In this document: one piece after another, positions 6,108 to 22,880 of the stretch
Layout: each line of letters starts with the position of its first letter
Numbering within the stretch: position 1 is the first letter of the stretch
Assembly (NCBI GenBank): GCA_016781485.1
Contig: JADDQH010000003.1
Location: 5,384-69,383 of the forward strand
DNA: 64,000 nucleotides
DNA from: Chloroflexota bacterium
Lineage (GTDB): Bacteria > Chloroflexota > Limnocylindria > Limnocylindrales > CSP1-4
Direction: 5' to 3'
Program-made: the position numbers and the translations under genes
Notes under the pieces: generated by a model
Database searches by the model: none
What the model was told of the DNA's origin: nothing
The model's input: the letters and a program-made list of their open reading frames with translations, nothing else

Positions 6108-7374
6108 CGGCATCGTCGAGGTGATCGCGAGCGTCCGATCCCTCCTTCACGTCGGTCCGGCGGTCCGTCTGACAGTGTCGGGGCTGCCAGCCGCGGAGGA
6201 GGTGGTCCTCGGCGAGAGCATCGCCGTGAACGGGGTGTGCCTGACCGTCGCGGGGCAGGGTGACGACGGTGATGTGACCTTCGACCTGATGCCCGAGACA
6301 CTGCACCGGACGAACCTGGGCTCCCTCGAGCCGGGGTCGGTCGTCAACCTGGAGCGTTCGCTTCGCTTCGGCGACCGGGTCGGCGGGCACTTCGTGCAGG
6401 GTCACGTCGATGGGACCGCGGAGGTCGTCTCGGTCGAACCCGAGGGTGACGCGCTGCTGGTCCGGTTCCGGCTCCACCAGCCGCGACTCGCCGCCTACCT
6501 CGTCGAGAAGGGGTTCGTCGCGGTCGACGGGGTGAGCCTGACGGTGGTCGAGACGCGCCACGAGACGTTCCTCGTCTCACTCGTCCGTACGACGATCGAG
6601 CGGACGTTGCTCGGGTCCCTGCGCACGGGCGCCGTCGTCAACATCGAGGTGGACGTCTTCGCTCGGTACCTGGTCGACCGCAGCATCCTCGCTCCCGCCG
6701 CCGGTGACGCACCGCCCTCAAGCCTGGTCGAAGAGGTCATCACCGACCTGAGGATGGGACGGCCGGTCATCCTCCTGGACGACCCGGACCGCGAGGACGA
6801 GGGCGATCTCGTGATGGCCGCAGAGTTCGCCACTCCGGAGTGGATCGCGTTCTTCATCCGGGAGGCGCGCGGTGTGCTGTGCGTCGCGATGGAAGGATCC
6901 CGCCTGGACGCGCTCGCGGTCCCGCTGATGATCGCCGAGAACACGTCTCCCCAGCGCACTCCGTTCACCGTCAGCGTCGATGCCGTCGGTACCTCGACCG
7001 GCGTCTCCGCCGCTGACCGTGCGCGGACGGTCAGGACGCTCGCGGACCCCGCCGCCCGGCCCTCCGACCTGCTTCGTCCCGGCCACGTGTTCCCGCTCCG
7101 CGCGGCAGCCGGCGGGTTGCAGGAGCGGCGCGGTCACACCGAAGCGGCCGTCGAACTGTGTCGCGCCGCGGGGCTCGCGGCTGCAGCCGTGATCGCCGAG
7201 ATCATCGAGCCCGACGGGCGGATGGCGCGCCGGCCCGAACTCGAGACGTTCGCGCGGACCCACGGCCTCCGGATCGTCTCGGTCGCCGAGCTCGCCGACT
7301 CCCTACGAGTGGACGCCGCGGCGCACCCCGCCGCGGACGGCCCGACGCCTCCCCTCCTGGCGACGATGGCATGA
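6100..7374 (+). CDS. Riboflavin synthase (RibE/RibC) fused in frame to 3,4-dihydroxy-2-butanone-4-phosphate synthase (RibB); no GTP cyclohydrolase II domain
   Basis: N-terminal MFSGIVE...two lumazine-binding repeats (~195 aa), linker, then the DHBP synthase core (RPVILLDDPDREDEGDLVMAAE...GHTEAAVELCRAAGL). At 424 aa there is no room for a RibA domain. Start overlaps the ribD stop; stop overlaps the ribH ATG (ATGA). Confidence 0.85.
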   Translation: MFSGIVEVIASVRSLLHVGPAVRLTVSGLPAAEEVVLGESIAVNGVCLTVAGQGDDGDVTFDLMPETLHRTNLGSLEPGSVVNLERSLRFGDRVGGHFVQGHVDGTAEVVSVEPEGDALLVRFRLHQPRLAAYLVEKGFVAVDGVSLTVVETRHETFLVSLVRTTIERTLLGSLRTGAVVNIEVDVFARYLVDRSILAPAAGDAPPSSLVEEVITDLRMGRPVILLDDPDREDEGDLVMAAEFATPEWIAFFIREARGVLCVAMEGSRLDALAVPLMIAENTSPQRTPFTVSVDAVGTSTGVSAADRARTVRTLADPAARPSDLLRPGHVFPLRAAAGGLQERRGHTEAAVELCRAAGLAAAAVIAEIIEPDGRMARRPELETFARTHGLRIVSVAELADSLRVDAAAHPAADGPTPPLLATMA

Positions 7375-7907
7375 CGGACCAGCCGGACGACCGGGGACTG
7401 ACGCTCGCGATCGTTGCCTCTCGGTTCAACGAGCAGATCGTAGATCGACTATTGGAGACGACGCTCGACGAGCTCACCCGTCTCGGGGTGTCGACCTCGG
7501 ACGTCCTGGTACTGCGCGCTCCGGGTGCCTTCGAGCTGCCCCTCGTGGCACAAGCCGTCCTGGACACGGCCGACCCTCCCGACGCGGTCATCTGCCTCGG
7601 TGCGGTCATCCGCGGCGAGACGCCGCACTTCGACTTCGTGGCGAGGTCCGCGGCAGATGGGATCCTTCGTGTCAGCCTCGACACCGGTCGGCCGGTGATC
7701 TTCGGCGTCCTGACCACCGATACCGCTGAACAGGCCCTCGACCGCGTGGACGGCCGCTACCGGCGGGGGGCCGACGCCGCCCGCGACGCGGTGACGATGG
7801 TGAGGCTCCTGGCGGCGACCCAAGGCGAGCGTCCGCGTACAGTTGCACGGATGCGAACGGGCCGCTCTGACGCCACCGACGGATCACGGGCTGGAGGAGA
7901 TGCGTGA
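7371..7907 (+). CDS. ribH: 6,7-dimethyl-8-ribityllumazine synthase
   Basis: LAIVASRFNEQIVDRLL...GAFELP...AVICLGAVIRGETPHFDFV lumazine synthase core; ATGA overlap with the upstream gene. Confidence 0.85.
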   Translation: MTDQPDDRGLTLAIVASRFNEQIVDRLLETTLDELTRLGVSTSDVLVLRAPGAFELPLVAQAVLDTADPPDAVICLGAVIRGETPHFDFVARSAADGILRVSLDTGRPVIFGVLTTDTAEQALDRVDGRYRRGADAARDAVTMVRLLAATQGERPRTVARMRTGRSDATDGSRAGGDA

Positions 7908-10345
7908 CGGGATCAGGGACCGGGCACACCGGCATCGACCGCGATGAAGCGGTCGCACTCGCCGCGGTCGACTCGGGGAGCGAGCTGGAGGCGCTCCTCG
8001 GACGCGCCGTCGAGGTGCGAGCGGCGCGAGGGAACGGGGTCATCACGTACTCGCCGAAGGTGTTCATCCCCCTGACGAAGCTGTGCCGCGACGTCTGCCA
8101 CTACTGCACGTTCGCCGCACCGCCGAAGCGCGGGCAGCGCAGTTACCTCCGGTCGGATGAGATCCTCGAGATCGCCCGGGCAGGGGCCGCAGCAGGATGC
8201 CGCGAGGCACTGTTCACCGTCGGGGACAAGCCGGAGCTCCGCTACGCTGCGGCTCGTTCCGAGCTCGCGGAGCTGGGGCACGAGACTACGGTCGGTTACC
8301 TCGCCGAGGCCGCCGCCGCCGTCCTCCGGGAGACCCGCCTCCTTCCCCACGCGAATCCCGGCGTGATGGGCGACGCCGAGCTCTCCCTCCTCCGGACCGT
8401 GGCTCCCTCCCAGGGCATCATGCTCGAGAGCCTCTCGACGCGGCTCGCTGAACGCGGCGGACCCCATTTCGGATCCCCGGACAAGATCCCCGGCAGTCGT
8501 CTGGAGACGATGGAGCGGGCGGGCGTGCTGTCCATCCCGTTCACGTCGGGGATCCTGATCGGGATCGGCGAGACGCGCGAGGAGCGGATCGACTCCCTGC
8601 TGGCGATCCGTGAACTCCACCGGCGTCACGGTCACATCCAGGAGGTGATCGTCCAGAACTTTCGAGCCAAGCCCGGGACGAAGATGGCCGGTCGACCTGA
8701 GCCGACGCTCGAGGATCACGTCTGGACGATCGCTATCGCCCGTCTCATCCTCGGCCCCTTCGTCCACATCCAGGCCCCTCCGAACCTCACGGGTGAGTTC
8801 GGCCGGCTCCTCGATGCCGGGATCGACGATTGGGGTGGCGTCTCGCCGGTCACGATCGACCACGTCAACCCGGAGGCTCCGTGGCCCGACCTGGAACGTT
8901 TGCGCGCGGTGACGGCATCGCGCGGGCTCACGCTCGAGCCGCGGCTGACGGTCTACCCGGAATACGTCCGAGAAGCCGGGCGTTGGATCGACGAGGCGGT
9001 GCGACCCCGCGTGCTGAGTCTCGCCGACGGCGAGGGACTCTCGCGCGACGACGCATGGTTCGCGGGGCTGACGGCCGACGCTCCCCCGTTCACCGCCCTC
9101 TTCGCGTCAGCCGTTGCGACTGACGTCCCGATCCGTACGCGCAGCGACCTGGGCTCGATCATCGCTCGCGCTCGCCGCGGGGAGGATCTCGACGAGTCGG
9201 AGATCGTGCGGCTCTTCGCCGCACGGGGGGCGGAGGTGCTCGCGGTGACGGAGGCGGCGGACGCAGTCCGTCGCGACGTGAACGGCGACGTCGTCACCTA
9301 CGTCGTGAACCGGAATATCAACTACACGAACGTCTGCTCGTTCCGGTGTCAGTTCTGTGCCTTCAGCAAGGGGAAGCTGTCCGAGGACCTCAGGGGGCGT
9401 CCGTATCTCCTGTCGCTCGAGGAAGTCGTGCGACGGAGCGTGGAGGCTTGGGAGCGCGGAGCGACGGAGGTCTGCCTGCAGGGCGGCATCCACCCGCAGT
9501 TCACCGGTGACTTCTACCTGGACGTCTGCCGTGCGATCAAGGATGCGCTTCCGCAGATGCACGTCCACGCGTTCTCGCCGCTCGAGGTCACCCACGGCGC
9601 GACAACGCTCGGCGTCCCGATCCCCGTGTTCCTGGAGCGGCTCCGGACGGCAGGCCTTGGGAGTCTGCCGGGGACCGCCGCCGAGATCCTCGATGACGAG
9701 GTGCGGGCGGTGATCTGTCCGGATAAGCTCCGGACGGCCGAGTGGGCGGAGGTGGTGGCGGGGGCGCACCACGTGGGCGTGCCGACGACGAGCACGATCA
9801 TGTTCGGCCACGTCGAGACGTACCACGCCTGGGCTCGCCACCTCCTCGTCCTCCGCCGACTCCAGCGCGAGACTGGCGGGATCACGGAGTTCGTGCCGCT
9901 CCCCTTCGTGCACGCGGAAGCGCCGATGTATCTCAAGGGACGATCGCGAAGGGGGCCCACGTACCGGGAGGCGATCCTCATGCACGCGGTCGCGCGCCTC
10001 GCACTGCACCCACTGATCCCGAGCATCCAGGCATCTTGGGTGAAGCTCGGGCCTACGGGTGCGGCAGGCGCACTGCGGAGCGGCGCCAACGACATGGGCG
10101 GGACGCTGATGAACGAGTCGATCTCCCGTGCCGCTGGCGCGTCTCACGGGCAGGAGCTCCCGCCCGAGACGATGGAGTCGCTCATCCGGTCCGTCGGGCG
10201 AGAGCCGCGGCAGCGGACGACGCTCTATGGTGTCCCGGCTTCGGAGCAGGTCGCCCGCTCGTTCACGGCGCCGCCCCTCGCCGCGCTCATCCAGCCGGCG
10301 GACCTGCGTTACCGGCGCCCTGATCCGACGATGGCGGTCAGGTGA
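7904..10345 (+). CDS. fbiC: Bifunctional FO synthase (7,8-didemethyl-8-hydroxy-5-deazariboflavin synthase, CofG+CofH domains), F420 biosynthesis
   Basis: Two radical-SAM CxxxCxxC motifs (CRDVCHYCTF and CSFRCQFCAF) in an 813-aa protein; GTG start overlapping the ribH stop (GTGA). Confidence 0.85.
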   Translation: MTGSGTGHTGIDRDEAVALAAVDSGSELEALLGRAVEVRAARGNGVITYSPKVFIPLTKLCRDVCHYCTFAAPPKRGQRSYLRSDEILEIARAGAAAGCREALFTVGDKPELRYAAARSELAELGHETTVGYLAEAAAAVLRETRLLPHANPGVMGDAELSLLRTVAPSQGIMLESLSTRLAERGGPHFGSPDKIPGSRLETMERAGVLSIPFTSGILIGIGETREERIDSLLAIRELHRRHGHIQEVIVQNFRAKPGTKMAGRPEPTLEDHVWTIAIARLILGPFVHIQAPPNLTGEFGRLLDAGIDDWGGVSPVTIDHVNPEAPWPDLERLRAVTASRGLTLEPRLTVYPEYVREAGRWIDEAVRPRVLSLADGEGLSRDDAWFAGLTADAPPFTALFASAVATDVPIRTRSDLGSIIARARRGEDLDESEIVRLFAARGAEVLAVTEAADAVRRDVNGDVVTYVVNRNINYTNVCSFRCQFCAFSKGKLSEDLRGRPYLLSLEEVVRRSVEAWERGATEVCLQGGIHPQFTGDFYLDVCRAIKDALPQMHVHAFSPLEVTHGATTLGVPIPVFLERLRTAGLGSLPGTAAEILDDEVRAVICPDKLRTAEWAEVVAGAHHVGVPTTSTIMFGHVETYHAWARHLLVLRRLQRETGGITEFVPLPFVHAEAPMYLKGRSRRGPTYREAILMHAVARLALHPLIPSIQASWVKLGPTGAAGALRSGANDMGGTLMNESISRAAGASHGQELPPETMESLIRSVGREPRQRTTLYGVPASEQVARSFTAPPLAALIQPADLRYRRPDPTMAVR

Positions 10346-10496: not shown

Positions 10497-11648
10497 TCAG
10501 GCGCAGATGGTCTCGTACGCCCTTCGAAGCAGCGCGGCGGCGGACGCCTGCTCGACCGCCACCAGGAAGTTGTCCGCGCGTCCGGGCGCGATGAAGCTGC
10601 CCCGGAGGCCGGAGAGCGCCGCCGCACTTCCGATGTGTTGCCTCAGCTCGTCGCCGGCTCCCGCGGACCGGAATAGCGCGTAGAGGCGGTCGACGGCGTC
10701 GGCGACGGACGTGGCGGCGAGCGCCTGGACGATCAGGGCCGCGCGGTCGGGAAACTCCTCGCCGACCTCGCGCAGGATCTCGGGAAGCGTCAGGCTGCAG
10801 GCGATCCCGTGCTGCACGCCAAGCTCCGCGGTCAGCGGATACGAGATCGAGTGCGCGAGCGCCGTCCGGGTATTGCTCATCGCCAGCCCGGCGACCAGCG
10901 CCGCCGAGGCGAGCCGCTCGCGTGCATCGGGATCAGCGGGCGACTCGAGGACGGCTCTCAACGCGTCCGGGATGAGGCCGATCGCACGGATCGCAAGCGC
11001 GTCCGAGATCGGATTCGACGCACGGTTCCAGATCGCCTCCATGGCATGTGACAGCGCGTCGAACGCGGTCGCGACCGTTGTCCTGCGCGGCACGCTGTGC
11101 GTGAGCAACGGATCGACGATGGCCGACTCCGGGTAAAGGCGGGGATGCGAGATCGAGTACTTCTTCCCGGTCCTCTCATCCCAGATCGTGCCCCACATCG
11201 TCACCTCGCTGCCGGTGCCTGCCGTGGTCGGGATGGCAAGGATCGCGGGAGGAAGGAAGTCGGCGGGGAACGGCCCGCCCTCCCTGAGGTGCGCCGAAAG
11301 CCAGGCGTCGGTGCCCGCGGCATCCTGGGCCGCGACCGCCTTCGCGGTGTCGATGACGCTCCCGCCGCCGATGGCCACGATCAGCTCCGCGTCGGCTGCC
11401 CGGACCTCCTCGAAGGCCGTCGTGCACGAGAGGACCGTGGGGTTCGGCGTGACGGCGGTGTACGTCGCGACGACCAGGTCGCCCAGCGCGTTCTCGACCG
11501 TGCGGAGCACGCCGCGGCGGGCCATCCCGTCGGACGTGAGGACGATGGTGCGACGGGACCGGGCGAGCTCCGCCAGCGCGCTCAGCGCGCCCGGGCCGAA
11601 GCGGATATGTACCGGGTTGTGGAAGGTCCTGGTTCGCCCGTCGGTCAA
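10497..11648 (-). CDS. Group III iron-containing alcohol dehydrogenase, predicted phosphonoacetaldehyde reductase (PhpC/FomC/Pdh-like)
   Basis: Fe-ADH fold signatures (GGGSVIDTAK, metal-binding His residues); last gene of the phosphonate operon; 4-nt overlap with ppd. Confidence 0.7.
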   Translation of the reverse strand: MTDGRTRTFHNPVHIRFGPGALSALAELARSRRTIVLTSDGMARRGVLRTVENALGDLVVATYTAVTPNPTVLSCTTAFEEVRAADAELIVAIGGGSVIDTAKAVAAQDAAGTDAWLSAHLREGGPFPADFLPPAILAIPTTAGTGSEVTMWGTIWDERTGKKYSISHPRLYPESAIVDPLLTHSVPRRTTVATAFDALSHAMEAIWNRASNPISDALAIRAIGLIPDALRAVLESPADPDARERLASAALVAGLAMSNTRTALAHSISYPLTAELGVQHGIACSLTLPEILREVGEEFPDRAALIVQALAATSVADAVDRLYALFRSAGAGDELRQHIGSAAALSGLRGSFIAPGRADNFLVAVEQASAAALLRRAYETICA

Positions 11649-12796
11649 CCGGGGAACCAGGACATGAACTGCTCCCTGACCTCGGCAGGCGCGTGGGCTG
11701 GCCGCCCGAGCTCCGGCGCTGAGCCGAGCGCGACCTTCACGTGCACGAGGTTGGGTCCGGTCGTGTTCATGCCCTCGGTGACGGCCGCCTCGAGCGCGTC
11801 GGCGGTGTCGACGCGCCAGATGTTCCGATAGCCGCAGCCAGCCGCGATCGTGGCGAAGTCGATACCCGAGGACACGGTCGCCTGACCGCCCGTCGACTCG
11901 TGCGCTTCGTTGTCGATGATCACGTGAAGGAAGCGAGCAGGTTGGCTGTAGCCGATGGTGGCGAGCGTGCCGAGCTTCATCAGCGCAGCGCCATCGCCGT
12001 CGAGGACGACGACGTTCCGGCTGCCGCGCCCGCCGAGATGCATGCCGAGGCCGATGCCGGACGCCGTCCCCATCGCCCCCACGACGTAGAACTGATTTGG
12101 GCGGTGGCCGAGCGTGTACAGCTCTCGTCCGATCTTTCCGGTCGTGCCGATGAGCGCCGCGCCGTCTCCGGCCGTGTCGCGAACGATCCGAATGGCCTCG
12201 ATCCGCGGCATCCGCTCCGACGGCGCGACCGTGAACGTCCCGCGTGGCGAGGCGAGCGGAGGCACCGGGTGGCGTGGCTGCTCGCTCAGCTCGTAGTCAT
12301 CGACCGCGCCCTTCCTCATCACGAACGCGTACGGACGTCCGGTCTCCGCCATGCACTCCTCGGCGCGCTCGAGGGCCGGCACGACCAGCGCCGGGTCCTC
12401 CGGGAAGAAGTCCCACGGGATCCGCATGGTCGTCAGCAGGTCACCTGTGATCTGGCCCATGAGCTCGTGCTGCGGCTCATCACGGACGCCGGGTGCGCCG
12501 CGGTGCGTGGTGATGAACAGCGTCGGGATCCGGAACGTGTAATTGAGTGACGTGAGCGGGTTGACCGCGTTGCCGAGCCCTGAGTTCTGGCAGATCACCA
12601 CGCTCTTGCGGCCGGCAAGATACGCGCCGGCCGCGACGCCGAGCGCCTCGCCTTCGCTCGCGGCGCCCACGTAGTCGACGTCGGGGCTACTGATGACGTA
12701 GTTGATGAATGGCGTGAGGAACGAGCACGGCACTCCGGCCCAGAACGAGTACCCCCGCTCGAGCGCCGGCTGGACGAAGTCGTGGGCCTTGATCAC
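11645..12796 (-). CDS. ppd: Phosphonopyruvate decarboxylase, fused alpha/beta (TPP-dependent)
   Basis: TPP-binding GDGA...N motif region (VVLDGDGAALMKLGTLATIG...IIDNEAHESTGGQ). The ORF-track ORF starts at a GTG 36 nt upstream; the start is set at the GTG that overlaps the stop of the upstream gene (GTGA). Adjacent to pepM. Confidence 0.85.
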   Translation of the reverse strand: MIKAHDFVQPALERGYSFWAGVPCSFLTPFINYVISSPDVDYVGAASEGEALGVAAGAYLAGRKSVVICQNSGLGNAVNPLTSLNYTFRIPTLFITTHRGAPGVRDEPQHELMGQITGDLLTTMRIPWDFFPEDPALVVPALERAEECMAETGRPYAFVMRKGAVDDYELSEQPRHPVPPLASPRGTFTVAPSERMPRIEAIRIVRDTAGDGAALIGTTGKIGRELYTLGHRPNQFYVVGAMGTASGIGLGMHLGGRGSRNVVVLDGDGAALMKLGTLATIGYSQPARFLHVIIDNEAHESTGGQATVSSGIDFATIAAGCGYRNIWRVDTADALEAAVTEGMNTTGPNLVHVKVALGSAPELGRPAHAPAEVREQFMSWFPG

Positions 12797-14907
12797 GACT
12801 CGATGTTCCTGCGGCCCTTGGCGTCGTACCACTGCCTGGAGTCGCCGACCACGCGCGCGAGGTTGTCGCGGCCCCCGGCGGCGATCGCCGAGAGCTCGAG
12901 TTGTGCGTCGCCGCTCACCCGGCCACCGATCCTGAGGACGAGCAACCGACCGCCCTGGCCCCGATAGCCGTGCCGAAGAGACGGCTTGGCGTATGCCGAA
13001 TCTCCCGGTGCGAGGGTGTCCTCGTATCGGTCCGTGCCGACCTCCCAGACCATGCTGACCGGGGTAGTGCCGACGTTGTAGACGTACTGGTGGAGGCCGA
13101 CGCGCAGGTCCGGCACGGCGGCTTCGTCGCGCTGCACGTTGAGCTCGAGACCCTTCGAGAACGGGAGGCTCCTCACCGGCGTGAGTTCCACCATCTCGTA
13201 TGCCGGCGCCCCGTCCGGATAGCTCCAGCGCGGTGAGTCGGCGTAGCGCTGGACCAGGACCGACTCCTCCAATACGTCGGGCACGAGCAGGTCGCGGACG
13301 CTGACGCGGAGCGCATCGGCGAAGCGTCGGAGCTCGTCCTCGGAGGGCTCGTCGCTGCCGGCCTCGAGCGCCTCTATCCGCGCCACGTGGAGCGCGGCCC
13401 GCCGCGCGAGCTCGCCGCAGGAGAGGCTGAGCCCCTCGCGATGGAAGCGCAGGAGCGACCCCATCGCTCGCTTCCGATCCGAGAAGTCGAGCACCAGCCC
13501 CGCAGCCAGCTCCGCGCCCAGCGCCGAGACCTCCTGGCGCGTCTCTCCAGCGAGCTTGTTCCCGTACGTCAGCGCCAGGATGAGGCCGAGCTCGCCGCGG
13601 TCATTCCTCCGTGAGGCGAACGAATGGGGAACGAACGGCGCGATGTACATCGAGTCGCCGGTGTCCATGACCGCGACGTTCTTTCGCCCGTCCGTCCCCC
13701 GGTAATAGAAATTCACCGGCCCCACGAAGTACGTGAACTGGTGGAGGAAGTGCCCGTTGTTCCACTGGATCGCCTGGTTCTCCGGGTCGTTGTCCTCGAC
13801 GACGCAGAGCTCCTTGATCCACTCGGGCCGGAATTGCGACAGCGAGCTCATCGCGGTGTCCCGGTACTCGTAGTAGTCCGCCCCGGCGCGCGCCATCACA
13901 CGGCTGCTCCGCTCGGAGTCCGCGGCGCGGAAGATGCGCACGCCGGTCGGGGCGTCGTCGTGGAGCAGATAGAACTCGCGCGGGCTGACCGGCCATGCCG
14001 CCGTGGCCTTGTCCACAAGCGCCGGCGGCAGCGACTTCCGCCCACCGATGATCTCCTCGATCTCGGGCAGAGGAACGCCGAGCTCTGCGGCGGCGTCCTC
14101 GGGGCGTCGCTTGAGGTCATTCAGGATCGCCCTGAAGTTCTCGCCGGTCCGTACGTCAGAAACCACTTGTCCTCCCGCCTTCCGGAAATCCTCGATCGTG
14201 TCGATCTCCCGCCACCCGCCACGGATGGTCACCGCGCGCACCTCGTGTCCGCGGTCGATGAGCTCCTGGAGCATATCGGTCAGGTACGCACGCTCCAGCT
14301 GCGCCGCCGCCTGGAACGGCCTGCCGGAGTGCGCCGCCGAGACATCGGCGAACACTCTCCGAAACGTCTGCGCGCCAGCGCGGGAGAGCCGCAGGAGGCC
14401 GATGAACTCGCCATCCGCATCGGCTTCGTCGAGATGCTTGCCGATCCTCGTGATGACCCCGTCCGTGAGGGCCACCTTCTCCGCCTGCGCGATCGGATGC
14501 TCCACCCGACCCTCGTACACCTTCCTCCAGTCGACGTCGCATACCGCCAGGAAGTCGCCCGTCGCCGACAGGAGTGTCTCGACCACGCTCGGCTCGTAGA
14601 CGATGTCCGAGTAGCTGACGACCACGTCGTCGTCGAGCTCCTCGCTCGCATACATCAGCGAGAGCAGGATGTTGTTGTTCCGGTAATCGGCGTTGAAGCG
14701 CGTCCTGACGCCGGAAAGCAACGGCGCGAGCCGGTCCGCCCGATACCCCGTGACGACGGTGATGTCGGCGATCCCGAACTCGCGGAACGTGTCGAGCTGG
14801 CGCTCGATGAGCGACCTTCCGTCCAGCTGGAGCATGCACTTCGGCTGGTCGCGCGTCAGGTGTCGCAGTCGGCTGCCCAGGCCGGCTGCCAGGACGATGG
14901 CTTTCAT
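12793..14907 (-). CDS. Fusion protein: N-terminal LicC-like nucleotidyl (cytidylyl) transferase (~250 aa) + C-terminal HEPD/MPnS/HppE-family bicupin dioxygenase with two HTH segments (~450 aa); candidate methylphosphonate synthase
   Basis: N-terminus MKAIVLAAGLGSRL...KCMLQLDGRSLIERQ is the NTP-transferase G-loop. The C-terminal part has an XRE-type HTH (LSLSCGELARRAALHVARIEALEAG) and a cupin with GHFLHQ...(37 aa)...FVPHSF. The ligand pattern is H, Q at +4 and H at +42, with F at +14 and I at +36. Length and layout match the bicupin-HTH enzymes. Confidence 0.7.
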   Translation of the reverse strand: MKAIVLAAGLGSRLRHLTRDQPKCMLQLDGRSLIERQLDTFREFGIADITVVTGYRADRLAPLLSGVRTRFNADYRNNNILLSLMYASEELDDDVVVSYSDIVYEPSVVETLLSATGDFLAVCDVDWRKVYEGRVEHPIAQAEKVALTDGVITRIGKHLDEADADGEFIGLLRLSRAGAQTFRRVFADVSAAHSGRPFQAAAQLERAYLTDMLQELIDRGHEVRAVTIRGGWREIDTIEDFRKAGGQVVSDVRTGENFRAILNDLKRRPEDAAAELGVPLPEIEEIIGGRKSLPPALVDKATAAWPVSPREFYLLHDDAPTGVRIFRAADSERSSRVMARAGADYYEYRDTAMSSLSQFRPEWIKELCVVEDNDPENQAIQWNNGHFLHQFTYFVGPVNFYYRGTDGRKNVAVMDTGDSMYIAPFVPHSFASRRNDRGELGLILALTYGNKLAGETRQEVSALGAELAAGLVLDFSDRKRAMGSLLRFHREGLSLSCGELARRAALHVARIEALEAGSDEPSEDELRRFADALRVSVRDLLVPDVLEESVLVQRYADSPRWSYPDGAPAYEMVELTPVRSLPFSKGLELNVQRDEAAVPDLRVGLHQYVYNVGTTPVSMVWEVGTDRYEDTLAPGDSAYAKPSLRHGYRGQGGRLLVLRIGGRVSGDAQLELSAIAAGGRDNLARVVGDSRQWYDAKGRRNIES

Positions 14908-14913
14908 GCTCCG

Positions 14914-16545
14914 TCACCGATACTGTCCGGCGCCGCCGAAATTCGACGCAGCGACGACGTCGTGCATGTCGTCCACGTCCAGCCAGTGGCCGCGGACGTA
15001 GACGACTTCGACCCGCCTGCCGCGCGCGAGGAGCGCATCGAAGACGTCCGCCATCCGCATGGTACGCGCGGCGCCGGTCGCCATCAGCTCCGTGCCCAGC
15101 TCCTTCAGCTGCTCCAGGCCCGACGCGGACATCTTCAGCAGGCCGATCCACTCGCCGTGCACCTGACCGGGCGGGAGCGTCGTGCTCATCTTCCCGAGGT
15201 GGGCGGTCTGATCGAACTCGCGCCAGTGGAACGGGCGGTCGCAGCACACCAGATCGCGGTAGCCGTCGCGATGCGCATCGTTCGCCGAGTCGGGGTCGAC
15301 GGCGATGCAGAAGTCCGAGTCCGACTCGAACAGCTGCATGGGGATGAACTTCTGGAAGAGGACGTCGCCGTACGCCACCAGGACCGGGCCAGAGAGCCCC
15401 TCCAACCCCTTGAACAGCGAGAAGGCCTCCTGGGTCGTGGCGTGCTCGTCGTTGTCGACGTACCGCGTATTCGGAAGCTGCAGTGCTTCCTTCCGGTAGC
15501 CGCGCACGACCGTGACGTCCTTGATGCCGATGCTCGTGAACGTCTCCATCATCCGCTCGAGAAGCGGCTTGCCCGCGATCTCGACCATCGCCTTCGGCCG
15601 ATCCTCCGTCAGGACGCCGAGCTCCTTGCCTCGGCCCGCCGCGAGCACGAGGGCCTGGGGCGCGCCCTGCCGAGCGGGGAGGTAGCGGCGCTCAGCCTCC
15701 TCCAGCTCGCCTGCGCCCTGGATCCGGAAGACCTCGCGGACGCTCACGATGCGGTCCTCGATATTCAGCAGGCTCTCCTCGCGAGAGAGCTGCTGCGCCG
15801 TCTGCTGCATCGCGGTGAGTGCGCTCCGCATGAGGTGGTTCGCCCAGATGACGACGCTGATGCCGGCCTCACGGAACACCTCGGTCGGCGTGCTGTAGTA
15901 CGTGGTCGGCACGATGACGACCGGGCAGCGGTCGCCCCATTCCTTCTTGAACGCGAGGATCTCGTCCGGGCGTGAGAGCTTGCTGTGGATGAGGATCGCG
16001 TCAGCGCCGGCGCGGTGATAGGCATCGGCCCTCCTGAGCGCCTCGGAAAGGCCCCAGCCGGCGATCAGCGCTTCCACGCGGGCGACGATGCTGAAGCTGT
16101 CATCGCGCTGCGCGTCCTTCCCCGCCTTGATCTTTCCGCAGAACTCGTCCACGTCGGCGAGTGGCTGGTTCTCGCCGATGAAGCTATTCGTCTTCGGGAA
16201 CAGTTTGTCCTCGATGGCCACTCCCGCCACGCCACGGGTCTCGAGCTTCTGGACGAGCCGCCGCATGTTGTTGAAGTTCCCGTAGCCCGTGTCACCGTCG
16301 AGCAGGATGGGGATCTTCACGGCATCGGTGACGAACTCGAGCAGGTCGAGCACCTGCGTCCAGCTCATCTCGTTGTTGTCGCGTACGCCCATCGAGGCGG
16401 AGATGGAGAGGCCGCTTCCCCACAGCCCTTCGAATCCCGCTTCCTCGGCGACCTTGGCGCTCAGGCCGTTGTGGGCCTCCATGAGGAAACTCAGCCCGTC
16501 GCGCGTCAGGATCTCTCGCAGCGCCTGCGTCTTCGATGAGTTCAT
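14914..16545 (-). CDS. pepM: Fusion protein: N-terminal phosphoenolpyruvate phosphomutase (PepM) + C-terminal LicC-like nucleotidyl (cytidylyl) transferase
   Basis: Diagnostic PepM motif [13 protein letters not shown] (EDKxxxxxNS) in an isocitrate-lyase-superfamily TIM barrel. The C-terminal part [33 protein letters not shown] is the NTP-transferase G-loop. GGAG RBS 6 nt before the downstream ATG. Confidence 0.85.
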
Positions 16546-17720
16546 GTCGCGACGTTTGCCGTGACGCGCTCGCGCGTCCTGTCCGCGACGAGGGCCACGT
16601 GGCTCGCGCCCACCGTCGCACTGCGCCCCACGTTGTAGACGTGACGTGCGCGCGCCTCTCGCAGCAGCGGCCGGAACCCTTCGCGCCTCGCGGAGAGATC
16701 GTCGATGCGGTCGAGGACAGCACGGAGGTCACCGGGGTCGACGATGCCGCCGAGCTCCTCGCGCACCGACTCTTCGAGCGGCACGAGTCCCACCCGTTCG
16801 TACTCGGGATTGTTGATCTTCTTCGGCGTGTCGACGAAGAGGACCGGACGCTCCAGGCCGAACGCGTACTCCAGGGCAGCTCCCGACCAGTCGCTGATCA
16901 TCAGGTCCGACTCGTGCAGCGACTGTTGTGCGTTCATGTCGGTCTCGACCCGGAATGACCGGTCGCCGAACCGCTGGGCCAGGGTCGTGGCGAGCTTCGG
17001 GAAGCGCCGCACGGTCATCGGGTGAAGGCGCAACACCACGGAGTGACCGGCGTCGACGAGTAGCTGCACGAGCTCCTGTCCGTACGGCGCCTCGATGAAA
17101 GAGCACGCTCCCCAGGACGGGGCGAGCACGATCCTGGTCATTCCGTCTTGTGCCGCCGCCCAGGGATGCTCGGCGCTCGTCCGGAGGATCGCGTCGAGAC
17201 GCCCGTAGCCGTGCTCCACGAGCTCCTTCGGCGGCAGCCCGTACGACTCCTCGGTGCGGCGGATCTCAGCGACGTGATGCGGTCCCACGCAGAAGACCGT
17301 GTCGTAGGCGTCGAACGCGCCCTTGCGATAGATCATGTGGGTGCTCACCATCGAATGGAACACGTAAACGTAGTGCACCGGGTGCACCGAGCGCTTCAGG
17401 TGGAACGACTCCAGGTCGGGAAGTGTCATCACGACGACATCGGCGTCCACGACCTTGAAGAACGCCGTCCGCGCCGCCCCCGCGCCGATGAAGAACGTGC
17501 GGATCCGAGGATCGTCGAGCGAGAGCACGGGATCGGTGGCGTCGGAGGTGACGTAGCAGATGCTGCGGCCCAACGAAGCCGTCAATTCGTTCACGATCGG
17601 CCCCAGGTGCGGCCAGTCGGCTCGTCCTTCCGCGTAGAAGACTATACCGCGGTCCTCCCGCGGAAGGCGATCGAAGGTCCGCATCGAGGACCACGCCGCG
17701 AAGGCATCCTTCAGCGACAC
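16542..17720 (-). CDS. TagF/TagB-like CDP-alcohol phosphotransferase (Glyphos_transf family), first gene of the phosphonate operon
   Basis: C-terminal region [27 protein letters not shown] resembles the TagF catalytic motif (xTDYSSxxFDYxxLxRPxxFY). ATGA overlap with pepM. Confidence 0.65.
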
Positions 17721-18208: not shown

Positions 18209-18553
18209 TTACCGCGGCTGGATCACGTCGAGTGGCTGCCGGCCACTGCGCAGCGCGCCGGCGGGGCGCGACTGCGTCGGCTCGATCTCCCCTGCGAGCC
18301 GGCGGAACCGCCCGACGGCTTCCGGCCGCAACGAGTACCAGATCCAGGTGCCGCGGCGCTCGCCGGCGACCCAGCCGGCGTCGCGCAGGACCTTCAGATG
18401 GTGCGAGACCGTGGGCTGGCTTACCTCGCAGCACGCGGTGAAGTCACAGGCGCAGATCTCGCCCTCCGCCGACAGCTGGCGGAGGATGGCGAGCCGTGTC
18501 GGGTCTGCGGCCGCCTGGAGGAGAACGACATCGGGGTCCGTCTGACGCTTCAT
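18209..18553 (-). CDS. arsR: ArsR/SmtB-family metalloregulator
   Basis: HTH region LAILRQL...CACDF...[18 protein letters not shown] with metal-binding Cys (ICACDF); start trimmed to the ATG matching the ~115-aa family length. Confidence 0.8.
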
Positions 18554-19673: not shown

Positions 19674-20606
19674 ATGGCGTTCGACCCCCGCCGATCGATG
19701 AAGGTCGGCGTCATCCTCCCGTTCTCGCAACGCGAGATGGGCGGAGAGACGCCACGCTGGAACGACCTCGTGGCGATGGCTCGGACGGCGGAGGCCATCG
19801 GCCTCGACTCGATCTGGATCTCGGACCACCTCCTGTTCCGATTCGAGGGGCAGGAACCGCGTGGCCCGTGGGAGTGCTGGTCGCTCGTCAGCGCGCTGGC
19901 GGTCGCGACCGAGCGGGTCGAGATCGGGACATATGTGAACTGCACGAGCTTCCGCAACCCGACGGTGTTCGCGAAGATGATCGACACGGTCGAGGAGATC
20001 AGCGGCGGGCGGCTGATCATCGGGCTCGGTGCCGGCTGGCACGAGCCGGAATACCAGGCGTTTGGCTTCCCGTTCGACCACCGGGTCAGCCGGTTCGAGG
20101 AAGCGATCGAGATCATCACCCGCCTGTTGCGCGAAGGGCACGTCGACTTCCAGGGGCGGTACTACCAGGCACGCGACTGCGAGCTACGCCCTCGCGGACC
20201 CCGCCCTGCCGGGCCACCGATCATGGTCGGCTCGACGCGCCCCCGGATGCTCCGGCTCGCCGCGCGGTACGCAGATGCGTGGAACGGCTTCGCAAAGCGG
20301 ATCGACGTCCTACCGTCACTGAACACGTCCGTCGACGAGGCATGCCGGGACGTTGGACGCGATCCCGCCACGCTCGCGCGAACCGCGGAGACCCACGTCC
20401 GCTTCCCGCACCTTGCCCCGGAGGGCGACGAAGCGGATCTCATGGGCGAGCCGGAAGAGCTGGCCGAGGTGCTGGCGCCGTATGCCGGGCACCGACTTGC
20501 CCATCTCCAGCTCCGGATCCGGCCGGACACCGTCGCATCGATCGAAGCGTTCGCGCCCGCGCTCGAGGCGCTCGATCGCCGGCTGGGTCATCGCGCCGGC
20601 GGGTGA
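19674..20606 (+). CDS. Luciferase-like monooxygenase (LLM) family oxidoreductase, probably F420-dependent
   Basis: LLM TIM-barrel signatures (MKVGVILPF...DSIWISDHL...GRLIIGLGAGW); F420 biosynthesis gene fbiC lies nearby. Confidence 0.6.
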   Translation: MAFDPRRSMKVGVILPFSQREMGGETPRWNDLVAMARTAEAIGLDSIWISDHLLFRFEGQEPRGPWECWSLVSALAVATERVEIGTYVNCTSFRNPTVFAKMIDTVEEISGGRLIIGLGAGWHEPEYQAFGFPFDHRVSRFEEAIEIITRLLREGHVDFQGRYYQARDCELRPRGPRPAGPPIMVGSTRPRMLRLAARYADAWNGFAKRIDVLPSLNTSVDEACRDVGRDPATLARTAETHVRFPHLAPEGDEADLMGEPEELAEVLAPYAGHRLAHLQLRIRPDTVASIEAFAPALEALDRRLGHRAGG

Positions 20607-20674
20607 CGAACGTGGGAGAGCAACCCGGCGGCTAAAGTCCGTCGAAGGTCGCGAACGACGGGCGACGACCGACG

Positions 20675-21922
20675 TCAGCGACCCGTGGCCGCACCGAGGA
20701 CGAGTCGGGCGCGCCGGACCGCACGCGACTCGCGGAGCGAGGCGTGAGCGCCGAGCCGGATCGGCGCGCCGGCGTTGTCGAGGTACAGCAGGACCCCTCC
20801 GGTCGTCGCGATCGCGCACAGGCCGAGGGCGGTCGTCAGGTCGACGAACCCTGTTTGGACCAGACCGGCGCCGAGGAACGGAGCGACCATCCCGCGCAGA
20901 CCGGTCGCCGCACTCCACCCTGCGACCGCGGCGCCACGGGATTCGAGCGGCGTGTTGTCGCTGATCACTGCCGAGATGCCGACATCGATCCCTGCGCTGG
21001 CCGCTCCCGCCGCGATCGCGGCGACCCAGAGGGTATGGAGGTCGCCCGCGATCGTGTACCCGAGCAACGATCCGAGCCCCAGCGCGCTTCCGCCGGCGAG
21101 GACCGCGCGAGGTCCTATCCTGTCGCTGACGACGCCCCAGGCGACGAACGAGACGGTGGTCGCGACCGAGATCAACGTGGCGACGACGGCCACATCGGCC
21201 AGCGACAGCGAGAGCCGGTCCACGTAGACGAGCGGATACAGAGGGACCGCCGCGATCATCCCGCCCCCGTAGAGCGCCTGCGCCAGAACGGCGCGGCGCA
21301 GCACGGGGCGCTCCGTGAGGGCACGGATCGATCCCCTCGCAGAGAACGCCGGCGCGTCACTGAGTCGAGCCCGCAGCCCGGCGTAGGCAGCTGCAGCAAG
21401 CATCCCGACGATCCCGGCCGCGGCGATGACGGGCAGGTCACCGGTCACGGCAGCAGCAACCCCGACCAGCAGCGTCGCGGCGACCGCCGCGCCGGCTCGG
21501 CCCGCGCCCAGCACGCCGAGCACGCGACCGCGCAGCCGGTCCGGGTACATCGCGCCCCAGAGACGCAGCTGGACGGGCGTCCCGAACGCGATCCCGACCC
21601 AGAATGCGAAGGCTGCGGCGACCATCACCGCGGGGATCGGCACGATCAGCACGGCCACGAGCGCGCCGGCGCCGAGTGCGCGGAGCAGCGCAAGCTGCCG
21701 TGGCGTCCGCGGGCCGATCCCGCCGGAGAACGCACCGAGGACGTTGGCGACGAACGGCGCTGAGGCAAGTGCAGCGAGTCCGGCAGGTTCGATCCCCGCA
21801 CGCCTCGCGACCGTGGGAAGGAGTGTCGAGACGACGACGACCGTGACGCCGACCCCCAGCGCGGCGAGCAGGTCGAGGGAAAGATTGCGCCGCATCCCGG
21901 CGGCGGGGATCTCGTGAGACAT
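20675..21922 (-). CDS. MFS transporter
   Basis: 12 predicted TM helices, Ala/Gly/Leu-rich; typical MFS loop 2-3 motif region. Confidence 0.7.
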   Translation of the reverse strand: MSHEIPAAGMRRNLSLDLLAALGVGVTVVVVSTLLPTVARRAGIEPAGLAALASAPFVANVLGAFSGGIGPRTPRQLALLRALGAGALVAVLIVPIPAVMVAAAFAFWVGIAFGTPVQLRLWGAMYPDRLRGRVLGVLGAGRAGAAVAATLLVGVAAAVTGDLPVIAAAGIVGMLAAAAYAGLRARLSDAPAFSARGSIRALTERPVLRRAVLAQALYGGGMIAAVPLYPLVYVDRLSLSLADVAVVATLISVATTVSFVAWGVVSDRIGPRAVLAGGSALGLGSLLGYTIAGDLHTLWVAAIAAGAASAGIDVGISAVISDNTPLESRGAAVAGWSAATGLRGMVAPFLGAGLVQTGFVDLTTALGLCAIATTGGVLLYLDNAGAPIRLGAHASLRESRAVRRARLVLGAATGR

Positions 21923-22112
21923 GACAGGACCTCGAGTGGGCAGTGGGCCTGCGAGGTCAGCTGTCGGGCTCGGCGGCGTGCGCCTTCGCGGTCCATCCGC
22001 GATTCGCCCCGGTGGGTGGTGGTTCCCCCGTCCTCTTGCGAGATTCGGCCAGGGACAAGGCTACACCGCATCGGCTTCGAAGGCCGGTGGCGCTCCCGGC
22101 TATCGTAGCCTT

Positions 22113-22880
22113 GTGGTCTCCCCGAGCAGCTCGGTCTTGGAGCAGCGAGAGTTCGACGTCCGCTTCGAATGGGGGCAAGAGGGGGCTCGACTCCTGGGGC
22201 CCGTGTCGGACATCGTCATCATCGTCGACGTCCTCCGGTTCACGACTGCCGTATCCGTCGCCGTCGATCGCGGCGCCGCGGTCTTCCCGTACCCGTGGGA
22301 CGACCCTTCCGCGGACGCGTTCGCGAAGGACCACGGGGCGATCCTCGCTACGAGAGGCGCCGGGCGCCTCTCGCTCTCTCCCACCTCGCTGCTGCACCTC
22401 TCGGAGGGTGAAAGACTCGTGCTTCCGTCACCGAACGGATCGACGTGTGCCGTGGTCGCTGCGGAAGCCGGATCCGCCGTCGTCGCCGGCTCCCTTCGAA
22501 ACGCCTCAGCTGTCGCCCGTTTCGCGCGCGCCCCGGGTCGGACCGTCGCCGTGATCGCCGCCGGCGAGCTCTGGCCGGGCGGTCAGCTGAGGCCGGCGAT
22601 CGAGGATCTGGTCGGCGCGGGCGCCATCCTGGCGGGGATGAGGCTCGGATCCCTGTCGCCCGAAGCTCGCGTCGCCGTAGCCGCATTCGGCGCGGTCTCG
22701 CGCGACCTACTGGCGACGATCAGCAAGTGCTCGTCCGGCAGGGAGCTCGCCGCGAAGGGCTGGGAGGAAGATCTGGCGCTCGCGAGCGAGCTCGACGCGA
22801 GCGACGAGGTACCCATCCTGTCGGGCGGCGCATTCGTTGCGCTCGCGGGAACGCATGGCACGGAGAGGCGCGGCAGCTAG
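22113..22880 (+). CDS. ComB-family (2-phosphosulfolactate phosphatase-like) protein
   Basis: EFDVRFEWGQEG...DIVIIVDVLRFTTAVSVAVDRGA matches the ComB family N-terminal core. The ORF track extends to 21921 and overlaps the MFS gene; the real start is uncertain (GTG 22113 or TTG 22137). Confidence 0.55.
   Translation: MVSPSSSVLEQREFDVRFEWGQEGARLLGPVSDIVIIVDVLRFTTAVSVAVDRGAAVFPYPWDDPSADAFAKDHGAILATRGAGRLSLSPTSLLHLSEGERLVLPSPNGSTCAVVAAEAGSAVVAGSLRNASAVARFARAPGRTVAVIAAGELWPGGQLRPAIEDLVGAGAILAGMRLGSLSPEARVAVAAFGAVSRDLLATISKCSSGRELAAKGWEEDLALASELDASDEVPILSGGAFVALAGTHGTERRGS

Follow-up and report, generated by a model that had tools for sequence, protein, structure and literature searches.

Fusion of PEP mutase (Ppm, also PepM) to a PF12804 nucleotidyltransferase (NTase) is the commonest Ppm architecture, accounting for 33% of non-redundant Ppm, and some clusters carry a ppm-fused NTase together with a nearby second NTase (Rice et al. 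2019, Nat Commun 10:3698, PMC6697681). PntC was characterised as an AEP cytidylyltransferase in the same study (Rice 2019, PMC6697681), and Ppm is described as 'often' fused to PntC (Li & Horsman 2022). In Fom1 of fosfomycin biosynthesis, the cytidylyltransferase (CyTase) domain belongs to PF01467 (Rice 2019, PMC6697681); according to passages of Rice 2019 (PMC6697681) and PMC8976061 citing Cho 2017, it forms CMP-HEP, which is used by later fosfomycin steps. Looking for studies on the biochemistry of Ppm-fused PF12804 domains, or on fusions between an NTase and methylphosphonate synthase (MpnS), we found Rice 2019 and Li & Horsman 2022 only, and in the literature covered no biochemical result on any Ppm-fused PF12804 domain. 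For about one third of Ppm-associated NTases, the function is thus a matter of inference.

Methylphosphonate (MPn) synthesis in Nitrosopumilus maritimus, which Metcalf in 2012 and Born in 2017 are said to have described, reportedly involves Ppm, Ppd, Pdh and MpnS, and the substrate of its MpnS (NmMpnS) is said to be free 2-hydroxyethylphosphonate (2-HEP). Here, we analyze a PepM-NTase gene and its neighbours (Table 1) in a stretch of 64,000 nucleotides, referred to as the window.

Table 1. Phosphonate-related features of the window and the basis of their assignment.
Feature	Coordinates	Strand	Size, extent or basis
ArsR-family HTH regulator	18209..18553	(-)	PF01022 E 1.6e-14; ~490 nt upstream of operon, same strand
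TagF-like transferase (CDP-glycerol glycerophosphotransferase family, distant), first operon gene	16542..17720	(-)	PF04464 32.5 bits vs cutoff 22.1
PepM-NTase ORF (bifunctional PEP mutase Ppm/PepM + PF12804 nucleotidyltransferase)	14914..16545	(-)	543 aa
PEP mutase domain	15679..16545	(-)	aa 1-289; TIGR02320, PDB identity, omega
LicC/PntC-fold NTase domain	14926..15657	(-)	aa 297-540; Pfam, PDB sequence match, fold, conservation
PPi loop of PepM-fused NTase	15592-15645	(-)	L301-K318; alignment
NTase-MpnS fusion	12793..14907	(-)	704 aa; N-terminal PF12804 NTase aa 1-~245, C-terminal methylphosphonate synthase aa ~252-700
Phosphonopyruvate decarboxylase (Ppd)	11645..12796	(-)	383 aa; TIGR03297 413 bits vs cutoff 312.5
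Fe-dependent alcohol dehydrogenase (Fe-ADH)	10497..11648	(-)	PF00465/PF25137

Domain architecture of the PepM-NTase protein

The PepM-NTase gene starts with ATG, overlaps the stop of its upstream gene by 4 nt and is followed by its downstream gene after a gap of 6 nt. The N-terminal half of the product matches PF13714 (PEP_mutase) at aa 10-253 (213 bits, E 5.6e-63) and the PEP mutase equivalog TIGR02320 at aa 9-277 (385.8 bits, cutoff 319.55). Its EDK(X)5NS motif, which occupies aa 112-121 (nt 16183-16212), reads E112-D113-K114-LFPKT-N120-S121; this motif served as the criterion for Ppm in Rice et al. 2019 (PMC6697681). Moreover, this half is 62-63% identical to the Mytilus (mussel) PEP mutase 1s2v/1pym, on which the AF2 model superimposes with a TM(target) of 0.90-0.93, and its omega is 0.10-0.21. 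By these features the N-terminal half is a PEP mutase, with a predicted activity converting PEP to phosphonopyruvate.

The C-terminal half matches PF12804 (NTP_transf_3) at aa 298-398 with 48.7 bits against a cutoff of 27. A PDB fold search with the full-length model returned PepM and isocitrate-lyase matches only, and the C-terminal domain was remodelled alone; for the resulting model (pLDDT 92), the leading Foldseek matches were LicC 1jyl (E 2.3e-16) and PntC-AEPT 6pd2 (E 4.6e-16), and the top PDB match by sequence was LicC 1jyk (E 2.2e-12). The earlier note on this DNA had placed PepM at the N-terminus and a LicC-like NTase at the C-terminus, and both assignments are borne out; the G-loop stretch that it quoted from the latter domain is found as given. 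Weak, partial NCBIfam and PDB matches might hint at a sugar-1-phosphate nucleotidyltransferase with no part in phosphonate activation, but this is highly improbable. Those matches cover only the N-terminal ~60-120 residues and all lie far under the family cutoffs, whereas LicC and PntC rank first both by sequence and by fold, and the domain is PepM-fused in all >110 full-length homologues and in all 80 loci analyzed (the best 80 of 590).

The PPi loop of the PepM-fused NTase reads G304-R-G306-K307-E308. The (T/S)R of the GXG(T/S)R(X4-8)PK consensus is absent, and the LicC Arg is aligned with Glu308. A Glu occupies this position in 98 of the 114 full-length homologues, Arg305, three residues upstream in the same loop, is conserved in 102, and P317-K318, holding the PK lysine of the consensus, is invariant (114/114). 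Judged from this alignment, a conserved non-canonical PPi loop, [S/G]RGxE and not GXG(T/S)R, is a feature of Ppm-fused domains. The metal-binding acidic residues are present as Y392-G393-D394 and W521-x-D523-x-D525, and across an alignment of 45 sequences K318, Y392-G393-D394, G464-E465-W466, W521, D523 and D525 are invariant. The omega of the domain is 0.14-0.33; on these values and on the invariant catalytic residues, the idea of a decaying pseudo-domain was rejected. On this evidence, the PepM-fused NTase is a paralogue conserved by purifying selection, and its PPi loop is atypical.

Because the loop departs from the consensus, the activity of the domain may be reduced or altered. The domain nevertheless looks functional, and we regard it as catalytically competent, given that it is the sole NTase detected near PepM in many loci: in about half of the 80 loci (best 80 of 590), no second NTase was detected in the fetched flanks. 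The earlier note had associated an inactive domain with loss of the G-loop and Mg-binding residues, and here the outcome is mixed, as both the PK lysine and the Asp residues for Mg binding have been retained, but Glu308 stands in place of the canonical G-loop Arg. Catalytic impairment, with the domain retained to serve PEP mutase in structure, oligomerisation or nucleotide sensing, would accommodate both this replacement of the PPi-binding Arg in most family members and the canonical NTase next door. We consider it very unlikely in view of the invariance across phyla of the lysine in PK, the Asp in YGD and the acidic positions of WxDxD, the conserved Arg three residues upstream in the loop, the low omega and the many loci with this domain as the only NTase detected.

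The adjacent NTase-MpnS fusion

The second NTase fusion that the earlier note had located next door, at 12793-14907, is indeed a PF12804 domain followed by an MpnS domain. The PF12804 match lies at aa 3-118 of the 704-aa ORF and the PPi loop is canonical (GLGSRLRHLTRDQPK). With E values of 2.3e-17 to LicC and 7.2e-9 to PntC, the MpnS-fused NTase is nearer to both known enzymes than is the PepM-fused NTase. The pairwise alignment proposed in that note was carried out and gave 30% identity over 246 aa between the two window domains, with differing PPi loops; the 'YSD' of the MpnS-fused NTase aligns with the 'ESD' of Tde-PntC, and the YGD of the PepM-fused domain aligns with that YSD.

The MpnS domain is 57% identical to N. 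maritimus MpnS 6b9s (E 1e-141). Aligned to 6b9s and 6b9r, it has His, Gln, Phe, Ile and His at the positions of NmMpnS H148, Q152, F162, I184 and H190, whose roles as metal-site and discriminating residues we take to be those described by Born in 2017. In S. albus HEPD, the discriminating Phe/Ile pair of MpnS is replaced by Tyr and Gly, a pair that is diagnostic of class II HEPD (PMC8976061). The usual form of MpnS is a stand-alone protein of ~455 aa, and the NTase-MpnS fusion is confined to a few lineages. The fusion provides a 'Rosetta-stone' hint that MPn esters may be formed from CMP-MPn as the activated donor. The MpnS-fused NTase has a canonical PPi loop and, by analogy with PntC-AEPT (Tde1415), is the more likely MPn cytidylyltransferase.

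Operon organisation

The gene order is TagF-like transferase, PepM-NTase, NTase-MpnS, Ppd and Fe-ADH, PepM-NTase being second. The genes overlap or stand 6 nt apart; the start of the Ppd gene, for instance, overlaps the stop of its upstream gene by 4 nt. By this arrangement the five genes are a translationally coupled operon. Five Limnocylindria/Chloroflexia MAG loci carry the same gene set (TagF-like, PepM-NT, NT-MpnS, Ppd and ADH). The top NCBIfam match of the Fe-ADH is TIGR03405 (Phn_Fe-ADH) at 338.7 bits, under the cutoff of 423.7, and the protein is likely a PhpC/Pdh-like phosphonoacetaldehyde reductase. The ArsR-family HTH protein is a possible regulator of the operon.

For the TagF-like protein, phmmer found no PDB relative. 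Its weak Pfam match (32.5 bits) and gene context point to a putative CMP-phosphonate:acceptor transferase, and homologues adjoin PepM-NTase in eight loci from other phyla. The operon flanks contain no acceptor-synthesis genes such as glycosyltransferases. An adjacent radical-SAM gene on the opposite strand, beside riboflavin genes, was considered as Fom3-like and rejected; with its Radical_SAM and CofH_C domains, it is read as an F420 FO synthase.

A proposed methylphosphonate pathway

We propose, with a probability of roughly 0.6, that the operon makes methylphosphonate, activates it with CMP and transfers it to a cell-surface acceptor, with PepM-NTase as an ordinary Ppm–PF12804 member. From what is shown above on domain identity, sequence motifs, fold, conservation and genomic neighbourhood, we infer the catalytic steps together with the nucleotide, the acceptor and what each NTase acts on, as follows. 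PEP would be isomerised by the PepM domain to phosphonopyruvate, which Ppd would convert to phosphonoacetaldehyde, a decarboxylation expected to pull the unfavourable PepM equilibrium forward. Fe-ADH would then produce 2-HEP, which the MpnS domain would cleave in its free form to yield MPn. MPn, possibly also 2-HEP, would react with CTP to give the CMP-phosphonate, from which the TagF-like enzyme would transfer the phosphonyl group onto an acceptor hydroxyl in the cell envelope.

A different use of cytidylylation would follow the example of Fom1: the PepM-fused NTase would make CMP-2-HEP, MpnS would act on the CMP-bound substrate and CMP-phosphonates would be obligatory. The use of CMP-HEP in later fosfomycin steps, as given in the passages cited above, and the presence of two NTase domains fused to pathway enzymes within one operon both agree with such a scheme. 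We nevertheless hold it to be unlikely: the Fom1 CyTase family is unrelated to PF12804, a Fom3-type methyltransferase and a FomD-type hydrolase are absent from the operon, the MpnS domain closely resembles NmMpnS with conserved active-site residues, stand-alone MpnS is the norm, and the NTase pair also occurs without MpnS.

Under the proposed pathway to surface-linked MPn, the operon and its relatives indicate a complete MPn pathway in Chloroflexota-like MAGs, some of them from soil. The MPn pathway is usually discussed for marine archaea and SAR11, and these MAGs fall outside both.

Distribution of the fusion and roles of the two NTases

The earlier note had singled out the PepM-NTase order as the reverse of Fom1 and had asked for phylogenetic profiling of the same domain order. 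The published figure of 33% (Rice et al. 2019, PMC6697681) and the profiling itself both show that the architecture is not unusual. The Ppm-then-NTase order is found in >110 proteins and in the best 80 of 590 genome loci, spanning many phyla; 114 full-length homologues align end to end with the 543-aa protein. Among the best 80 of 590 confirmed genome loci, full-length identity to the window protein is 54-81%, and the NTase match follows the PepM match on the same strand in every one (80/80). A search of a representative library with the NTase domain yielded mostly metagenomic fragments, and only 76 clusters at E<=1e-30. Relatives with the Ppm–NTase architecture are routinely annotated 'phosphoenolpyruvate mutase'. 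As far as its sequence goes, the PepM-NTase ORF is an ordinary member of the widespread and already known Ppm–PF12804 class, and the fusion of PepM to a LicC-like NTase in itself matters little, having been catalogued in 2019 as the commonest PEP mutase form. The MpnS-containing context is rare, with MpnS in 5 of 80 related loci (best 80 of 590).

The combination of a Ppm-fused NTase and a second NTase (NT2) occurs in clusters of AEP type (one locus), HEP type (three loci) and MPn type. Because the pair is also present in AEP- and HEP-type clusters lacking MpnS, it demonstrates neither obligatory CMP-phosphonate intermediates, for which the earlier note had argued from the two fusions, nor a split of the two NTases between 2-HEP and MPn. 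What survives of the suggested difference in roles is that the domains, by their low mutual identity and distinct PPi loops, are non-redundant.

The canonical Arg is kept in all 22 NT2 sequences examined (22/22), in contrast to [S/G]RGxE in the fused domain. Identity of the fused domain is 38-44% between cluster types and 45% within the AEP type, while NT2 shows 33-51% within a type and only 25-28% between types, a comparison confounded by phylogeny and drawn on an NT2 set that may be non-orthologous. Among type-conserved residues of the fused domain, only G/S304 and M/L320 separate AEP, HEP and MPn clusters; by contrast, the Ppd-less Nitrospirales group differs at D431G, E465V and D525N. This lack of cluster-type differences sits uneasily with a fused NTase that recognises the final head group.

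A division of labour, which we entertain tentatively as the less probable course, would explain these patterns: the MpnS-fused NT2 would be the true MPn cytidylyltransferase, and the PepM-fused NTase would have a role independent of the head group, its substrate being shared by all Ppd-containing clusters; candidates are an early intermediate, such as phosphonoacetaldehyde or phosphonopyruvate, and a non-phosphonate alcohol phosphate needed by the transferase. The recurrence of the pair across the three cluster types, the contrasting loops, the flat identity of the fused domain beside the falling identity of NT2, the scarcity of type-distinguishing positions and the divergence of the Ppd-less Nitrospirales are all in line with it. 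The identity comparison carries the confounding just mentioned, however, and in many loci no NTase other than the fused domain was detected, so that there it should serve as PntC. Furthermore, both Ppd and AEPT act on free substrates in vitro, and we know of no precedent for CMP-PnAA or CMP-PnPy.

More speculative, and in our judgement doubtful, is the wider proposal that Ppm-fused PF12804 domains form a distinct subfamily and are not simple PntC duplicates. They may activate a shared early intermediate or co-substrate, with the partner NTase making the CMP-phosphonate. As a corollary, if this were true, the TagF-like transferase would attach methylphosphonate to the envelope of Limnocylindria-like, apparently non-marine bacteria, which would then represent a terrestrial source of a methane precursor.

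Comparison with known systems

Fom1 resembles the window protein in that PepM is fused to a phosphonate-cytidylylating domain, and the functional logic is analogous. The 'reverse domain order to Fom1' claimed in the earlier note nonetheless compares non-homologous domains. The Fom1 CyTase is of the TagD/CCT type (PF01467) and N-terminal to PepM, whereas the window NTase is PF12804 and C-terminal, at aa 297-540. Accordingly, the Fom1 CyTase structure 5x3d matches TagD at E 1.4e-11 and is absent from the PDB matches of both window NTases at E<=1, and Pfam gave no PF01467 match in the 543-aa protein. The fosfomycin pathway further has Fom3 and FomD, which the window operon lacks.

The closest counterparts of the protein itself are the Ppm–PF12804 fusions (Rice 2019; Li & Horsman 2022), which likewise combine both domains, carry the EDK(X)5NS motif and have Ppd next door and a second NTase within the cluster. 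They are identical in architecture; what differs is the context, here a rare MpnS-containing operon. With PntC (Tde1415 PntC-AEPT, 6pd1/6pd2; Ari1348) and LicC (1jyk/1jyl), the PepM-fused NTase shares the fold (Foldseek TM 0.72-0.82), the PK lysine and the metal-binding acidic residues. It is only ~20% identical to them, however, and has G-R-G-K-E where they have G-x-G-(T/S)-R; moreover, it is C-terminal to Ppm, whereas PntC is free or N-terminal to AEPT.

The window operon has in common with the MPn pathway of N. maritimus the four core enzymes, and its MpnS domain keeps the Gln, Phe, Ile signature of the archaeal enzyme. It differs from that pathway in the fusion of MpnS to an NTase, in the presence of a TagF-like transferase, and in its host, a high-GC MAG most closely related to Limnocylindria (Chloroflexota) MAGs, soil-metagenome proteins among them.

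The PEP mutase-nucleotidyltransferase fusion and its operon

The PEP mutase-nucleotidyltransferase (PepM-NTase) is encoded by a real open reading frame, the second of five closely packed minus-strand genes in a MAG with a GC content of 70%. Residues 9-277 of its product match the PEP mutase equivalog TIGR02320 (385.8 bits; cutoff 319.55), this half matches PF13714 (E 5.6e-63), and the Ppm-specific EDK(X)5NS motif is present (E112-D113-K114…N120-S121). Mussel PEP mutase is 62-63% identical and has a TM of 0.93 to an AlphaFold model of the protein (pLDDT 85; input alignment of 45 homologues), in which the linker between the halves is short and of low confidence (288-291). Residues 297-540 match PF12804 (48.7 bits; cutoff 27) and, in a PDB sequence search, LicC (1jyk; E 2.2e-12). 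Modelled alone (pLDDT 92), this fused NTase has LicC (E 2.3e-16) and the phosphonate cytidylyltransferase PntC-AEPT 6pd2 (E 4.6e-16) as its best structural matches. Profile, motif and model matches bear out the earlier note's description of a PepM followed by a LicC-like NTase; a sugar-1-phosphate NTase is a highly improbable reading of the PepM-fused domain.

Genomic features of the window and of related loci (L numbers)
Feature	Position or locus	Strand	Remarks
TagF-like transferase, distant (PF04464)	16542-17720	-	operon gene 1
PepM-NTase, 543 aa	14914-16545	-	TIGR02320 + PF12804
PPi loop of fused NTase	15592-15645	-	aa 301-318
NTase-MpnS, 704 aa	12793-14907	-	N-terminal PF12804; C-terminal match to N. 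maritimus MpnS, E 1e-141
Phosphonopyruvate decarboxylase (Ppd)	11645-12796	-	TIGR03297, 413 bits
Fe-alcohol dehydrogenase (Fe-ADH)	10497-11648	-	operon gene 5
ArsR-family HTH gene	18209-18553	-	~490 nt upstream of operon, same strand
Flanking F420-like neighbourhood	6100-10345; 19674-22880	+ (first)	Radical_SAM + CofH_C gene, riboflavin genes, luciferase-like oxidoreductase, 2-phosphosulfolactate-phosphatase-family gene
Other NTase-MpnS fusions or pairs	L001-L004, L010; L085-L087; L090:2864-4985		window lineage and others
TagF-like homologues beside PepM-NTase	L066:12591-13778; L089:5757-6905; L012, L021, L027, L039, L053, L080
Gene order, Gammaproteobacteria	L088		LicD; PepM-NT, Ppd, AEPT, NT2, sulfatase
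Gene order	L089		TagF-like, PepM-NT, Ppd, NT2, Fe-ADH, sulfatase
Gene order, Gemmatimonadaceae	L066		PepM-NT, Ppd, NT2, Fe-ADH, TagF-like
Nitrospirales PepM-NTase, then aldo/keto reductase	L025:7980-10515		about 10 others (e.g. L015, L016, L028, L030, L036-L038)

The gene set recurs at five Limnocylindria/Chloroflexia MAG loci (~80% identity), and this predicted complete methylphosphonate (MPn) operon of Limnocylindria-like MAGs is worth carrying forward. Its flanks hold unrelated genes, including an MFS transporter, a luciferase-like protein, riboflavin genes and an 813-aa Radical_SAM + CofH_C gene, in our view a fused F420 FO synthase; they look like an F420-related neighbourhood without evident phosphonate link. 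The operon promoter could lie in the long gap downstream of the ArsR-family gene. The TagF-like protein, for which a sequence search found no PDB relative, recurs beside PepM-NTase across several phyla, where the clusters are of HEP type or, in some cases, AEP type. Like the LicD and sulfatase-family genes of other clusters, it is a candidate for the phosphonyl transfer step.

A common architecture with a non-canonical loop

Among the 1485 non-redundant Ppm proteins of Rice et al. 2019 (PMC6697681), 59.5% are fusions; PF12804 (LicC type) is joined to 33% and PF01467 (Fom1 type) to 23.6% of all Ppm, and some clusters combine a ppm-fused NTase with a second NTase nearby; Li & Horsman 2022 make the point on Ppm-NTase fusion again. 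Both domains were present in all of our best 120 homologues, whose 114 full-length members span 520-570 aa; the annotation of relatives reads 'phosphoenolpyruvate mutase'. When one genome per species was scanned, 590 matches were confirmed, with PepM first and NTase second in all of the best 80, which covered Chloroflexota, Nitrospirota, Proteobacteria, Spirochaetota, Cyanobacteria, Gemmatimonadota, Bacillota and CPR. The architecture is thus common and already known: the fusion that the earlier note observed is confirmed, but it is not unusual, and the interpretation placed on it is only partly supported. Relatives of the fused NTase also form residues 761-1004 of the 1004-aa protein P0249, possibly a triple fusion, and the N-terminus (14-253) of the 611-aa P0270, possibly PntC-AEPT-like.

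The LicC/PntC-type PPi-site consensus is GXG(T/S)R(X4-8)PK (quoted in Rice et al. 2019, PMC6697681). In the 114 full-length homologues the loop reads L-A-A-[S/G]-R-G-x-E-L-G-x-L-T-x-D-[R/K]-P-K. The PK lysine (K318) is invariant, and the window protein has K307-E308 for the (T/S)R pair. In an ungapped alignment Glu308 falls on the LicC Arg, and 98 of the 114 have Glu there; R305, three residues before, is kept in 102. Y392-G393-D394, G464-E465-W466, W521, D523 and D525 are invariant in 45 diverse sequences. Pairwise Nei-Gojobori omega among the window protein and four orthologues is 0.14-0.33 for the fused NTase and 0.10-0.21 for PepM. Selection thus maintains the fused NTase, with most catalytic residues retained and one defining motif position failed, so the check for an inactive domain gave a mixed outcome: the lysine and most catalytic residues stand, while the canonical Arg is Glu308. 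Since about half of the 80 loci showed no second NTase close to PepM, we infer that the PepM-fused NTase is probably active; an impaired or regulatory domain, the reading to which Glu308 would lend itself, is very unlikely.

Two nucleotidyltransferases and the head group

The fused NTase and the MpnS-fused NTase are collinear paralogues (30% identity over 246 aa, E 3e-32). The latter has the canonical PPi loop GLGSRLRHLTRDQPK and is nearer to LicC (E 2.3e-17) and Tde-PntC (E 7.2e-9), and its canonical Arg is kept in all 22 partner NTases (NT2) read in related loci. The conserved [S/G]-R-G-x-E loop of Ppm-fused NTases, as opposed to G-x-G-(T/S)-R, is a sequence feature worth carrying forward.

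Typed by neighbouring genes, the best 80 loci comprise 33 AEP-type, 5 MPn-type and 5 HEP-type clusters and ~10 Nitrospirales loci, typed separately (aldo-keto reductase, no Ppd); the rest are unassigned. PepM-NT and NT2 are generally found as a pair. Because the pair also occurs where only one phosphonate is expected, the suggestion that one NTase serves 2-HEP and the other the C1 product is weakened. Residues of the fused NTase conserved within types do not differ among AEP, HEP and MPn clusters except at G/S304 and M/L320; only the Ppd-less Nitrospirales differ (D431G, E465V, D525N). Fused-NTase identity is 38-44% between types vs 45% within the AEP type, and NT2 identity falls from 33-51% within to 25-28% between types. 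This suggests that NT2, not the fused NTase, is the head-group-specific cytidylyltransferase, although phylogeny is a confounder here and the NT2 proteins compared may not be orthologues. A head-group-independent role for the PepM-fused NTase is a tentative possibility.

The flanks of the Nitrospirales PepM-NTase genes, covered for up to ~8 kb on each side, yielded neither a Ppd nor a second NTase or a transferase; these loci, with their aldo/keto reductase, may follow another phosphonate route that does not need Ppd.

At positions 148, 152, 162, 184 and 190 of NmMpnS (N. maritimus MpnS), the MpnS-like domain retains His, Gln, Phe, Ile and His; the two of these positions that discriminate are Tyr and Gly in S. 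albus HEPD, a pair diagnostic of class II HEPD (PMC8976061). MpnS usually stands alone (~455 aa). The ~700-aa fusion occurs in roughly 40 protein clusters of the same Limnocylindria-like lineage as the window operon and in two further lineages, beside Fe-ADH (P0163) or flanked by a split Ppd and a sulfatase (P0167); this lineage-restricted fusion is worth carrying forward. At L090, NT2 adjoins a separate 456-aa MpnS-type (Phe/Ile) gene, with PepM-NT, Ppd and Fe-ADH. In the light of this arrangement and the general pairing, the window operon is a HEP-type module whose NT2 has fused with an adjacent MpnS gene.

Proposed pathway and comparison with known systems

We infer all catalytic steps of the window pathway and favour the following route, at a probability of roughly 0.6. 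PepM would convert PEP to phosphonopyruvate, Ppd this to phosphonoacetaldehyde, and Fe-ADH this to 2-HEP; the MpnS domain would act on free 2-HEP to give MPn. CMP activation would follow MPn synthesis, and the TagF-like enzyme would move the phosphonyl group onto an envelope acceptor. By analogy with PntC-AEPT, the MpnS-fused NTase most likely makes CMP-MPn.

Obligatory CMP intermediates as in Fom1 are unlikely. The earlier note saw the reverse of the Fom1 domain order, which is not borne out. The Fom1 CyTase is assigned to PF01467 because its structure (5x3d) matches B. subtilis TagD (E 1.4e-11); 5x3d is absent from the PDB matches of both window NTases at E<=1, and a Pfam search found no PF01467 in the PepM-NTase protein. 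Rather than one domain pair swapped, PepM was joined independently to non-homologous cytidylyltransferase families in Fom1 and in the window protein. The favoured pathway, from PEP through MPn to the envelope, is built on the same logic as the Lic/Pnt systems of Rice et al.
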